A DNA stretch of 35,441 nucleotides from a virus. Taxonomy: Duplodnaviria; Heunggongvirae; Uroviricota; Caudoviricetes. The stretch is taken from IMG/VR virus record IMGVR_UViG_2529293216_000013; one strand, given 5' to 3'. The notes under the pieces were generated by a model, which had not been told where the DNA came from, made no database searches, and saw only the letters and a program-made list of their open reading frames with translations. This document shows, piece by piece, positions 21,484 to 34,415 of this stretch (position 1 is its first letter; every line of letters begins with the position of its first letter). The translations under genes and the position numbers were made by a program.

Positions 21484-21529
21484 ATTCGTAATGCGAAGGT
21501 CGTAGGTTCGACTCCTATTATCGGCACCA
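21484..21529 (+). tRNA. 3' fragment (about 46 nt) of tRNA-Thr (thrW-like); attL core of the P4-like element
   Basis: ATTCGTAATGCGAAGGTCGTAGGTTCGACTCCTATTATCGGCACCA matches the thrW 3' half as recalled; upstream sequence does not match the tRNA 5' half. Confidence 0.65.
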
Positions 21530-21691
21530 TCTCAACTTCCTCAAACGTCCGTATTAGTCCATAAAATCTCTGATTTATAACATTTTTTATTCTTTTAAGT
21601 CCATAGTAGTCCGTAACCATCCAGTAGAATCCGGTACTGAATGTGTATAGGATTGTGTATATGTTCCTGTTCGGTCTGGATTCCTATACAC

Positions 21692-22873
21692 ATGCCTTTA
21701 AACGATATGCAGATTCGCCGCGCTAAGCCTGAAGCTAAAGCCTATACATTTGGAGATGGGCTAGGGTTGTCATTACTTATAGAACCTAATGGAAGCAAGA
21801 GTTGGCGGTTCCGCTATCGCTATGCCGGCAAACCCAAAATGATCTCGCTTGGTGTTTACCCAACGATCACCCTTGCCGATGCTCGTTCCCGTCGTGATGA
21901 AGCTCGAAAACTTGTGGCAGAAGGAAAGAACCCTAGTGAGGTTCGAAAAGAGCAAAAGCTAGCTATGCAAACAGAGTCAGAGAACGCCTTCGAAAAGATA
22001 GCCAGAGAGTGGCATCAACTTAAATCTGCTAAATGGTCGGCGGGATATGCATCAGACATCATGGAAGCGTTTAAGAACGACATTTTTCCTTATGTCGGAA
22101 CAAGGCCTGTGGGAGAGATTAAACCGCTAGAGCTGCTGAACGTTCTGCGTAAAATTGAGAAACGTGGTGCGTTGGAGAAAATGCGCAAAGTGCGGCAGCG
22201 TTGCTCCGAAGTGTTTCGCTACGCAATTGCAACGGGTAGGGCGGAGTACAATCCTGCGGCTGATCTCTCCAGCGCTCTCGAAGTACACCAATCCAATCAT
22301 TTCCCATTCCTAAAAGCTGATGAGATACCTGATTTTCTACGTGCCTTAGAGGGTTACTCCGGGAGTAAGCTTGTCCAGATAGCCACGAAATTACTGATGA
22401 TTACGGGTGTGAGAACCATCGAATTACGCGCGGCATTATGGCAAGAATTTGATCTGGATAACGCTATTTGGGAAATTCCTGCTGAAAGGATGAAAATGCG
22501 TAGGCCACATCTTGTGCCCTTATCATCTCAAGCGGTAGATTTACTCAATGAACTCAAGATCATGACAGGGAACTATCGTTATGTTTTTCCAGGGCGGAAC
22601 GATCCGAATAGGCCAATGAGCGAAGCGAGTATAAATCAAGCCATTAAGCGTATTGGGTATGGAGGAAAAGTCACTGGACATGGTTTTCGTCATACCCTTT
22701 CTACAATCCTGCATGAGCAAGGTTTTGAGAGTGCTTGGATTGAAATCCAGTTGGCTCATGTAGATAAAAATTCTATTAGGGGGACTTATAACCATGCTCA
22801 ATATTTTAGTGGAAGGAAGTCTATGATGGACTGGTACAGTAATTTGATATTTGAAAGACTAAAAAGGAGTTAA
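21692..22873 (+). CDS. int: P4-type tyrosine integrase
   Basis: N-terminus MPLNDMQIRRAKPEAKAYTFGDGLGLSLLIEPNGSKSWRFRYRYAGK...; C-terminal catalytic region HGFRHT...; adjacent to tRNA fragment. Confidence 0.85.
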   Translation: MPLNDMQIRRAKPEAKAYTFGDGLGLSLLIEPNGSKSWRFRYRYAGKPKMISLGVYPTITLADARSRRDEARKLVAEGKNPSEVRKEQKLAMQTESENAFEKIAREWHQLKSAKWSAGYASDIMEAFKNDIFPYVGTRPVGEIKPLELLNVLRKIEKRGALEKMRKVRQRCSEVFRYAIATGRAEYNPAADLSSALEVHQSNHFPFLKADEIPDFLRALEGYSGSKLVQIATKLLMITGVRTIELRAALWQEFDLDNAIWEIPAERMKMRRPHLVPLSSQAVDLLNELKIMTGNYRYVFPGRNDPNRPMSEASINQAIKRIGYGGKVTGHGFRHTLSTILHEQGFESAWIEIQLAHVDKNSIRGTYNHAQYFSGRKSMMDWYSNLIFERLKRS

Positions 22874-22876
22874 TTT

Positions 22877-23293
22877 GTGTCTCAACCACTTTCGGAAATA
22901 TTGACATGGGATGATGAACAATGGGAGGTATTTGTCCATGATTGGCTTATTGTCTGTAAATCAGATGATTACCCGTGGAGCGAACGTTTGGGAGGAGCTG
23001 GAGATAAAGGTAGAGACGTTGTTGGATATAAATCGGATCCTAACGTAGAAGGTTATTCTTGGGATAATTATCAATGCAAACTGTACAAAAAAAGTTTAGG
23101 GTTCTCTGATGTTGTAGTTGAGTTTGGAAAACTTATCTATTTTACTCTGAATGGTGATTATCCCATCCCTCAGAAGTACTTTTTTGTGGCACCCTATGAT
23201 TTATCTACTACATTTTCTAATTTATTGAAAAATAAAAACGAGCTTAAAAAAGCAGTCCTTGATTCATGGGATTCAGCAATTTCAAAAAAATAA
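22877..23293 (+). CDS. Mrr-like PD-(D/E)xK nuclease domain protein, 5' segment of candidate defence effector (LmuA-like); frame breaks in A7 tract
   Basis: GTG start with AAAAAGGAG Shine-Dalgarno 4 nt after int stop; motif GGAGDKGRDVVGY...YQCKLYKK resembles Mrr catalytic core GDGGIDG...QCKRYK; about 28% GC. Confidence 0.5.
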   Translation: MSQPLSEILTWDDEQWEVFVHDWLIVCKSDDYPWSERLGGAGDKGRDVVGYKSDPNVEGYSWDNYQCKLYKKSLGFSDVVVEFGKLIYFTLNGDYPIPQKYFFVAPYDLSTTFSNLLKNKNELKKAVLDSWDSAISKK

Positions 23294-32777: not shown

Positions 32778-32909
32778 CTGACCTAAGACCGGCTGTGCCG
32801 GTCTTAAATCCGCTACAGGAAATTATCTCAAAATATATATCGATAAAATTTAAAAGTTATATGCTAAGGCGTCAGCGGAAAATGCATCTAATTCATTGTT
32901 AGATGATGT

Positions 32910-33866
32910 TTATTTTTGAATTGATTTAAACATCCCATCGAGTTGTAATTTATTTATGTCGGTTTTCTTTATGGCTTTAATTAAGTTTTCAATAACTTCC
33001 AAAGAAAAAATTACATCTTTCTTTTCAATTCTAACCCCCCCGTGGTGGCTGCAAGCATTAAGGATGTCCTTTGTAATTTCAACATCATTTTTCATTAATG
33101 GTTCATAGTCCAGAGCCTCAATAACAGAAACTAAACTACCTAGCATTTGCTCTTGGTATTGAACGTTGTTTAAATGCATTATACGAATATTAACAAGCAT
33201 GAGAATATATTCTAAATATCTCCTGGCAGTATTTCCTTTCTCTTGTAAAGAATCACGATCATATTCCTCAATACTCATGACTTCATTATGTAAAGAGGCT
33301 ATTTTGTGCTCTGCTAATGAAATATTTATCGCATCCATGAGGTTTCGTGAGAAGCCTGTAGATGTAACATGACCATTTGCGGGCCTTGTTAAAATACATG
33401 TAGTATAGCAATTTATATTTGGGGTCTGGATTGTCTCATTTACTCTTTTAACCGTTCTATAAACGTCTACCATATAAGAACCTGAGTTTTCAAATGAACA
33501 TGAAGAGCATTTTGTATTATATATTCTATTTAGAGATAACTGATTGTGATAGTATCCCTTTAAGAAAGCATATATAGTGTCATTAAACTCGACAAACACA
33601 ACGGACTCAATATATATATGGAATTTATCATTGGGGTGCCACTCTAATTCAAGTCTTCTTGTAGAGTCATCAAAGGAAAAGTTTGAAATAAAATCCCAGT
33701 TACCTAAATCTATAAAATCAACGATATTTCTACCTGCACCATGGATATTTTTATTTATTAAAGTTGTGATTGAGTTTTTTATAATGTCCCAATCATGAAT
33801 TTCATGATCGAATTTATTATTGATGGTTTCTTTTATTTGATTGGAAAAGTTTGAATAACTAGTCAC
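32910..33866 (-). CDS. Hypothetical AT-rich cargo protein (318 aa), unknown function
   Basis: Long ORF in very AT-rich DNA between primase gene and attR; no recognisable motif. Confidence 0.5.
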   Translation of the reverse strand: MTSYSNFSNQIKETINNKFDHEIHDWDIIKNSITTLINKNIHGAGRNIVDFIDLGNWDFISNFSFDDSTRRLELEWHPNDKFHIYIESVVFVEFNDTIYAFLKGYYHNQLSLNRIYNTKCSSCSFENSGSYMVDVYRTVKRVNETIQTPNINCYTTCILTRPANGHVTSTGFSRNLMDAINISLAEHKIASLHNEVMSIEEYDRDSLQEKGNTARRYLEYILMLVNIRIMHLNNVQYQEQMLGSLVSVIEALDYEPLMKNDVEITKDILNACSHHGGVRIEKKDVIFSLEVIENLIKAIKKTDINKLQLDGMFKSIQK

Positions 33867-34397
33867 TTGTTAGCCTCAAAATTAATAATGAGTATTAAAA
33901 TTTAATTGATATTGTCTATAAAATGTAGCGATGCAATTTTATTGCAACGAAATGATTTTTACAACATACCATTATCGCTAAACAAAATCGCACCCATCAA
34001 ATCAACTTACGTTACAATCACTACAAAGCGATTGCATTTAAATTCAAAACAGTTTTCTGTTGGGCGCATTTTTTGTTGTACTGGACTAAAGAGAAAAAAT
34101 GGGGTAAGGAACAAATACCTTCCGTGCTCAAAAATTAGGTTTTTATGCACTTATTAATCAGTCAAGGTGAACAGTAAAGTGTTCACTTCTTATCAATCGT
34201 TAATTTCATATCTTTTTGAATATTAATGAAAAAAAACACAATGAGTAGTATGAACAGTTTTCCCCCAAAAAAAGTTTTTTCTGCCTTGAGAATGCGCGGA
34301 AAGCGAACGCCTTCACCAATGTGTATAGGGGTGTGTGTAGTTTAAATCTTCTATTTTAATTTATGTATTAAAATCATTGTGTTGGTGGCGATTATTG

Positions 34398-34415
34398 GTT
34401 CCTATTATCGCACCA
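34398..34415 (+). repeat. attR-like imperfect direct repeat of tRNA-Thr 3' end
   Basis: GGTTCCTATTATCGCACCA versus tRNA 3' end GGTTCGACTCCTATTATCGGCACCA at 21505..21529. Confidence 0.5.

Follow-up and report, generated by a model that had tools for sequence, protein, structure and literature searches.

Why does the integrase gene of a P4-like satellite stand beside only the 3′ half of a tRNA gene? The question is raised by a 35,441-bp stretch of viral DNA (IMG/VR record IMGVR_UViG_2529293216_000013; hereafter the window, meaning the whole stretch at its full length), in which a satellite element of about 12.9 kb begins at a 46-nt fragment of the tRNA-Thr gene thrW and ends at an imperfect repeat. 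An earlier note, made from the letters alone, saw in the missing 5′ half a sign of secondary rearrangement, possibly with loss of the functional tRNA from the locus. Our analysis leads to a different and more ordinary answer: the region is very probably the right half of a tandem array of two elements, both integrated into thrW downstream of proBA, the P4-type satellite having entered first and an SfV-family phage second. The window matches Escherichia coli O157:H7 chromosomes at 99.97–100% identity, and the comparison set consisted of 5,426 complete E. coli genomes.

The satellite is itself a known one: from its sequence and position we identify it as prophage Sp2 of E. coli O157:H7, already annotated as P4-like. 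In the record of strain Sakai, "prophage Sp1, lambda-like phage" comes directly after thrW and is followed by "prophage Sp2, P4-like phage". Sp2 there spans 12,887 bp (310628–323514), which, placed by offset from the integrase start, corresponds to window 21513–34399 with a 17-nt core, TCCTATTATCGGCACCA, at its very start and a second core directly beyond its last base. We take Sp2 to be equivalent to CP-933I of EDL933. Sp1 and Sp2, with the same sizes, are also tabulated for strain FRIK804 (PMC7430833).

The two flanking repeats differ greatly in how much they say on their own. The left one, ATTCGTAATGCGAAGGTCGTAGGTTCGACTCCTATTATCGGCACCA (46 nt, 21484–21529), matches thrW of both O157 and K-12 with 100% identity over a 3′ part that begins in the anticodon loop and ends with CCA, so that the earlier reading of it as a tRNA-Thr 3′ fragment holds; thrW is a 76-nt tRNA-Thr(CGU) gene, and ARAGORN finds no intact tRNA in the window. 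The right one, GGTTCCTATTATCGCACCA (34397–34415), shares with it the 10-mer CCTATTATCG, which occurs at these two places only in the window against 0.05 expected, weak evidence when taken alone, and two copies also arose in 1 of 100 shuffles. A repeat so short and imperfect might be a chance match, with the true right boundary elsewhere, but comparison with other genomes leaves this reading practically no probability. A chimeric query joining proA–thrW to the right flank from 34417 on finds one contiguous match, the empty site proA-thrW|TTTAAATCAAG-LysR, in 948 genomes, and in these the native flank restarts exactly at 34416. In strain 88-3493, which has the empty site, the CCA of thrW is followed by TTTAAATCAAGTAGTTACCCC and then by the LysR gene, an exact match to the sequence past 34415. 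The Sakai annotation of Sp2 ends at the equivalent of 34399, and at the same position the related element of strain 64EVA is flanked by a perfect 17-nt repeat. It is this comparative evidence from empty-site genomes, rather than the repeat statistic, that we regard as decisive for the boundary, which falls exactly at 34415/34416.

Genomes that carry the satellite and nothing else at the locus complete the picture. A second chimeric query, joining proA–thrW to the sequence that follows the fragment (from 21530 on), is contiguous in 120 genomes, where an intact thrW leads directly into the element (thrW|TCTCAACTTCC-int); among them are O55:H7 strain DEC5A and the O157 strains 493/89, 2571 and F6321. 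DEC5A is 99.76% identical over window 21484–35441, has the same deletion of one G in attR, and its satellite adjoins an intact thrW. In 64EVA a more distantly related element, with other cargo in its hotspot, has a perfect TCCTATTATCGGCACCA as its right flank; because the repeat there is a perfect 17 nt, we take the P4-type core to be 17 bp and the O55/O157 attR to be that core less one G. The single insertions in DEC5A and 64EVA, set beside the empty site of 88-3493, display the arrangement that defines a tRNA island, namely duplication of the 3′ end, a tRNA regenerated at one end and a displaced copy at the other. With 12.9 kb between its attL and attR cores, the element is att-delimited and falls below the 20 kb that bounds a satellite. 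Comparison with the empty site in related strains, which the earlier note had proposed, thus upholds its outline of a P4-like satellite of about 12.9 kb bounded by thrW 3′ repeats, as does the Sakai annotation.

The explanation of the half tRNA that accompanied this outline fares differently. The sequence taking the place of the 5′ half, which had been called unrelated, is at 21445–21483 the canonical left arm of an SfV-family attP. In SfV, attP lies in the int-proximal region and consists of the left arm tgatgggataatcctttgaattacaagcggattcttata, the identical 46 nt and the right arm tttaaatcaataagttacacatcatt, the last of which matches the sequence after the intact thrW in strain FRIK2455. Because the sequence 5′ of the fragment is the SfV attP left arm, we interpret the fragment as the attR of a second thrW-integrating prophage, of SfV type, joined to the satellite's attL. 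Each integrase works on its own part of thrW: the SfV-type enzyme has a 46-nt core, within which the 17-nt core of the P4-type enzyme is nested, and the middle thrW copy holds both.

A complete version of such an array is present in FRIK2455, where the order is proB–proA, intact tRNA-Thr, int on the minus strand, a prophage of ~38 kb, the AraC gene, a partial IS3-family transposase gene, the 46-nt fragment and the satellite. The upstream integrase of FRIK2455 is 99.7% identical to that of SfIV, 99.5% to that of SfII, 99.2% to that of SfI and 98.1% to that of SfV. Integrase, 46-bp core and attP arms all place the upstream prophage of the window in the SfV family, the integrase being read from the collinear FRIK2455 prophage, as the gene itself lies outside the window. 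The gtrABX genes of that family are not found next to attR, where a PD-T4-3 gene, an AraC regulator gene and the IS3 remnant stand instead; the upstream prophage therefore has the integration module in common with the SfV family and is not serotype-converting. The PD-T4-3 and AraC genes occupy the position at which SfV-family phages carry their gtr O-antigen genes.

Against this background a deletion or an IS-mediated event that removed the 5′ half of thrW beside the satellite integrase, possibly taking the functional tRNA-Thr(CGU) with it, seems to us very unlikely. Such an event would accord with the absence of any ARAGORN tRNA call in the 35-kb window, with the IS3-family remnant 350 bp upstream of the fragment and with the upstream region of the window, which is indeed rearranged. 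The break, however, coincides with the exact left edge of the SfV-family 46-bp att core, as a tandem array would have it; the 39 nt to its left are an SfV attP arm, neither IS nor random sequence; and the rearrangement junctions of the window, at about 11315 and about 17700, are distant from the fragment. Every inspected relative with the same junction retains an intact thrW on the far (left) side of the upstream prophage, which puts it 10.6 kb (Sakai) or 38 kb (FRIK2455) further upstream, and 282 genomes show the window's succession from IS remnant through fragment to int. Full-length thrW is kept in 5,378 of the 5,426 genomes (99%), with 8,001 matching places in total and hence ~2,600 extra partial copies: partial copies of thrW are commonplace, and loss of the gene is not. 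As for the insertion sequence, a remnant is present as the earlier note had it, although not as an IS2-like one: it is a partial IS3-family element, labelled ISEc48 in the Sakai record; it belongs to the cargo that the upstream prophage carries towards its right end, and it did not bring about the truncation.

We propose that the array arose in two steps, the first of which is displayed by the comparisons above. A tyrosine-recombinase crossover in the 17-bp core TCCTATTATCGGCACCA, with which thrW closes at its 3′ end, brought Sp2 in; the 3′ end supplied by the element kept the tRNA intact beside int, and the displaced core came to lie 12.9 kb away, next to the LysR gene. An SfV-family temperate phage would then have entered the regenerated, intact thrW through its 46-bp core, an event visible in the structure of the locus and placed second by inference. 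The phage would again have supplied a 3′ end, pushing the older 46-nt 3′ end, with the satellite attached, to its own right end. On this model 21484–21529 would be a hybrid junction composed of an SfV-type attP left arm, a 46-nt core and the left end of the satellite, and the functional thrW should be found on the left, at the other end of the SfV-type prophage. There is experimental precedent for such stacking: thrW is the integration site of the Shigella serotype-converting phages SfI, SfII, SfIV and SfV, and SfI enters the attL (intact thrW) of resident SfX to give a tandem array (PMC3306764).

The satellite probably arrived before the SfV-type prophage, because O55:H7 and early-branching O157 strains carry it alone beside an intact thrW and because the upstream prophage varies while the satellite and its attR lesion stay constant. 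In the opposite order, the SfV-type prophage would have been resident first and the satellite would have entered the 17-bp core within the displaced 46-nt fragment, used as a secondary attB. That fragment holds a perfect 17-bp core and is a competent target, and the resulting map is identical. We nonetheless think this order improbable: DEC5A, 493/89 and others have the satellite beside an intact thrW without the prophage, with the same attR G deletion and a junction 99.8–100% identical; it is not the same upstream prophage in all O157 lineages, Sakai having the lambda-like remnant Sp1 and FRIK strains a complete prophage of SfV type, whereas the satellite is constant; and in the SfI/SfX precedent the newcomer used the intact tRNA (PMC3306764). 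Several points nevertheless tell against the satellite-first tandem array that we favour. Structure alone does not fix the order, as entry of the satellite into the displaced fragment would give the same map; the window's own intact thrW lies beyond its limits, and retention of thrW in the source genome is predicted; and the arrangement of the upstream prophage in the window is seen in none of the complete genomes compared.

The features on which these arguments rest, and the remaining genes of the region, are collected in Table 1.

Table 1. Features of the satellite, its att sites and flanking regions, in window coordinates
Feature	Position	Strand	Evidence and remarks
Right end of upstream SfV-type (Sp1-type) prophage	17684–21483		Collinear with FRIK944, FRIK2455 and Sakai; Pfam and PADLOC
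pinE invertase	about 17728–18327	+	Upstream prophage
GIY-YIG PD-T4-3 defence gene	18388–19212	-	Full-length PADLOC PD-T4-3 match, E = 2.7e-140
AraC regulator	19977–20729	+	Upstream prophage
Partial IS3-family transposase	20771–21136	-	ISEc48 per Sakai record; 350 bp upstream of fragment
SfV-type attP left arm	21445–21483		tgatggggtaatgctttgaattagaagcggattcttata, 39 nt, matches SfV attP arm
46-nt thrW 3′ fragment	21484–21529	+	Read as middle att of tandem array: SfV-type attR core containing P4-like attL; same as 46-nt core of SfV attP
attL core, P4-like element	21513–21529	+	17 nt, TCCTATTATCGGCACCA; Sakai Sp2 start maps here; perfect 17-nt repeat flanks 64EVA relative
P4-type tyrosine integrase (IntS in Sakai)	21692–22873	+	ORF open from 21641; Pfam Arm-DNA-bind_3, Phage_int_M and Phage_integrase; 38% amino acid identity to P4 Int; PHROG integrase
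LmuA, Lamassu (ABC-3C)	22877–23883	+	Frameshifted: ORFs 22877–23293 and 23266–23883 in different frames; PADLOC LmuA profile positions 10–140 and 141–333; Pfam CTD6
LmuC (ABC-3C middle component 2)	23868–24341	+	Intact in window; PADLOC LmuC, Pfam MC2
LmuB ABC/SMC-like ATPase pseudogene	24307–26153	+	Three successive ORFs; PADLOC LmuB profile positions 3–199, 231–412 and 428–608
G-rich cos-like motif	26333–26353	-	GGCGTGGGGGGCTGCGCGCGC, diverged from P2/P4 19-mer; at P4 cos position; similar motif at same place in 64EVA
Delta/Ogr-type zinc-finger late-gene activator	26563–26835	-	Pfam Ogr_Delta; 90 aa (Ogr-sized); 41% identity to N-terminal half of P4 Delta (166 aa)
Psu, polarity suppression/capsid decoration	26841–27392	-	Pfam Psu, 4.8e-42; 31% identity to P4 Psu
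Sid-like capsid size determination protein	27389–28141	-	23% identity to P4 Sid, full length; PHROG 6165, 5e-96; Sakai "phage capsid size determining protein"
P4 ori-like repeat region	28305–28411		72% identity to P4 9311–9418, within annotated P4 origin with type 1 repeats
AlpA/Vis homologue, putative excisionase and regulator	29075–29335	+	Pfam Phage_AlpA; 63% identity to P4 ORF88/Vis
Immunity region with Ash-family ORF	29332–29889	+	Pfam Phage_ASH; 68% identity to P4 "cI" ORF
isrK-type RNA	29407–29484		Rfam 71.9 bits, above gathering score
C4/CI antisense immunity RNA	29553–29640		Rfam C4, 84 bits (gathering score 45)
Two small conserved P4-module ORFs	29886–30430	+	73-aa ORF (phrog_10110); DUF5375 ORF, equivalent of P4 ORF106, 71% identity
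Alpha primase-helicase, 777 aa	30444–32777	+	ORF open from 30387; Pfam Zn_Ribbon_Prim, Toprim_3, D5_N, DUF5906 and Pox_D5; 72.6% identity to P4 alpha over 771 aa
318-aa cargo ORF between alpha and attR	32910–33866	-	Conserved in Sakai and DEC5A; sits where P4 has crr
attR core, P4-like element	34400–34415	+	TCCTATTATCG-CACCA, 16 nt, 17-nt core minus one G; aligned with empty site, DEC5A and 64EVA
LysR-family regulator (yagP in Sakai record)	34542–35441	-	Chromosomal; native right neighbour of thrW in 948 empty-site genomes

P4-like satellites are defined here as in SatelliteFinder, by seven core gene families (PMC13586616). Between the repeats, Pfam and Rfam models, PHROG profiles and blastp against P4 proteins recover the integrase, sid/psu/delta, alpA, ash-like and alpha genes that the earlier note had placed there, PADLOC being the further profile set used. 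All seven core families, namely integrase, Psu, Delta, Sid, AlpA, Ash and alpha primase, are represented (Pfam and PHROG, with blastp against P4). The late genes, which in such a satellite serve to hijack the capsid of the helper, run in the order sid-psu-delta, and an ogr homologue on Sp2 has been noted before (PMC2669165). P4-type RNA immunity is indicated by the C4 and isrK RNAs found with Rfam; the Ash/Icd-like ORF overlaps both, and the labels "phage repressor protein" and "Icd-like" probably misname what is, as in P4, a largely RNA-based immunity region. Neither the 318-aa ORF (32910–33866, minus strand) nor an 83-aa ORF beside it (33906–34157, plus strand) has a Pfam, PADLOC or PHROG match, and the stretch from alpha to attR in which they lie, occupied in P4 by the crr replication region, may serve the satellite as a second site for cargo.

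The accessory hotspot behind the integrase carries a Lamassu system in decay. LmuA, LmuB and LmuC are found together, with PADLOC E-values of 1e-21 to 1e-50, but their reading frames are not all intact, LmuA being in two pieces and LmuB in three. The lesions of LmuB are a nonsense codon at 24964–24966 (A at 24965, where DEC5A has T) and a frameshift near 25496–25587, and Sakai annotates the gene as one pseudogene, ECs_0293. LmuC of DEC5A is annotated with an internal stop, at a difference corresponding to window 24143. The lesions are thus lineage-specific, with the LmuB nonsense codon in O157 and the LmuC stop in O55:H7 DEC5A. A 2026 survey found pseudogenes resembling defence genes to be rare in P4 satellites, at <1% of P4 pseudogenes.

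Sp2 as a whole appears to be an immobilised, decaying satellite, because its attR lacks one G, its LmuA and LmuB are pseudogenes, it has neither a P2/P4-type cos 19-mer nor an epsilon gene detectable by blastp, O157 offers no competent P2 helper, and circularisation tests were negative. The 19-mer GGCGAGGCGGGGAAAGCAC, with which the P4 record begins, does not occur in the window even when 3 mismatches are allowed, and a fuzzy search allowing 6 errors returned only noise apart from the G-rich motif at the expected position; blastp found no homologue of P4 epsilon. Asadulghani et al. (PMC2669165), who put all the Sakai prophages to the test, found Sp2 negative for circularisation, replication and packaging; they also describe the P2-like Sp13 resident there as degraded too far to serve as helper. 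The attR deletion may itself be the cause of the immobility. Two considerations pull the other way: the G-rich cos-like motif at 26333–26353 may be a functional site for a helper other than P2, and the G missing from attR may have been absent from the element's attP at the outset and not deleted later, which would put the crossover in CACCAT.

Upstream of its right end, the SfV-type prophage of the window is rearranged. Window 1–11315 corresponds, in reverse complement, to the early/lysis region of the thrW prophage of SfV type (FRIK2455 locus L002, 15892–4578); 11312–17709 is the right end of a Mu-like prophage, with mom, a gene for a 679-aa DUF6645 protein, a gin-like invertase gene and tail-fibre assembly genes, and it occupies other chromosomal sites in other strains; and the thrW prophage picks up again at pinE, from 17684. 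The 26 nt common to the last two matches overlap a gix/pix-like site, TTCCCGTAAACCAACGTTTAAGAAAA (17692–17717), which agrees with gixL in 20 of its 26 positions. The junction at about 11315 occurs in none of the complete E. coli genomes, and none of them is collinear with the whole window. One tentative account, to which we give somewhat less than an even chance, is that a Mu-like prophage inserted itself by transposition into the prophage of SfV type, its end falling at about 11312–11316, and that a Gin/Pin invertase then recombined gix with pix at the hybrid site 17692–17717, inverting ~38 kb and leaving thrW ~55 kb from the satellite. If true, this would be an invertase-mediated recombination across two prophages, in an arrangement absent from all 5,426 complete genomes; taken with the attR G deletion and the decayed Lamassu genes, it would suggest a satellite nearing permanent fixation. 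We found no literature report of an inversion involving a Mu-like and a thrW prophage, and the paper on FRIK804 describes only strain-specific insertion sites of Mu-like elements (PMC7430833).

Beyond correct annotation the finding matters little, since the half tRNA is an ordinary scar of tandem integration. What it does suggest is a habit of reading: with ~2,600 extra partial copies of thrW in 5,426 genomes, a tRNA 3′ fragment beside an integrase should be taken first as the internal att site of a tandem array. Two unrelated integrases acting on nested parts of thrW (46 bp and 17 bp) would allow either element to stack on the other with the tRNA unharmed. A minor addition is the pseudogenised Lamassu in the P4 defence hotspot of Sp2, of a kind reported to be rare.

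Among known systems, the closest is Sp2 of Sakai, which is this very element, with genes, att cores and locus in common; over the wider stretch 17684–35441 the window and Sakai are 99.3% identical. The window is nearer still to O157 strains of the FRIK944/FRIK2455 type (99.97%), which carry a full SfV-type prophage where Sakai has the 10.6-kb Sp1 remnant, and it differs from both FRIK strains and Sakai in the additional rearrangement of its upstream prophage. The thrW satellite of 64EVA has an ATP-dependent nuclease and a helicase as hotspot cargo (locus L006, 17838–21743), and its perfect 17-nt core is followed by another island, with a DUF3987 gene (from 29137 onward), making a further thrW tandem array.

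K-12 offers a partial likeness in CP4-6, which uses the same tRNA gene and has a displaced 48-nt thrW 3′ fragment (GCATTCGTAATG...CACCA) at its far end, followed by the same native flank, but whose content is unrelated and includes no P4 core genes. The K-12 pair ptwF/intF was considered as an analogue of the fragment-plus-integrase arrangement and set aside: IntF is a different integrase, at the far end and in the opposite orientation.

With P4 (NC_001609) the window element shares the prophage order att, int, accessory hotspot, (cos), late operon, immunity RNA, alpha, att, as well as tRNA 3′-end integration, CI/C4 RNA and an ori-like region, and the resemblance is strongest in alpha (72.6% identity), ORF106 (71%), the cI region (68%) and Vis (63%). 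The target of P4 is leuX. The window element instead targets thrW, and its Int, only 38% identical to that of P4, is consistent with this different target. Its late proteins have likewise diverged (Sid 23%, Psu 31%, Delta Ogr-sized, in the order sid-psu-delta); counterparts of epsilon, ORF151, gop, beta and cII are lacking, as is the P2/P4 cos 19-mer, while Lamassu fills the hotspot and an extra 318-aa gene stands at the position of crr.

The array itself finds its nearest parallel in SfI and SfX tandem lysogens and in the attP of SfV: the partner integrase is 98–99.7% identical, the 46-bp core does not differ, the two attP arms can be made out, and there too a partial copy of the tRNA remains between elements stacked at thrW. 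Unlike SfV, which has gtrA, gtrB and gtrV, the prophage in the window has an AraC regulator, an IS remnant and PD-T4-3 near attR; and unlike the SfI and SfX pair, the array here has as its second element a P4-type satellite, with an unrelated integrase and a 17-bp core nested within that of its neighbour.

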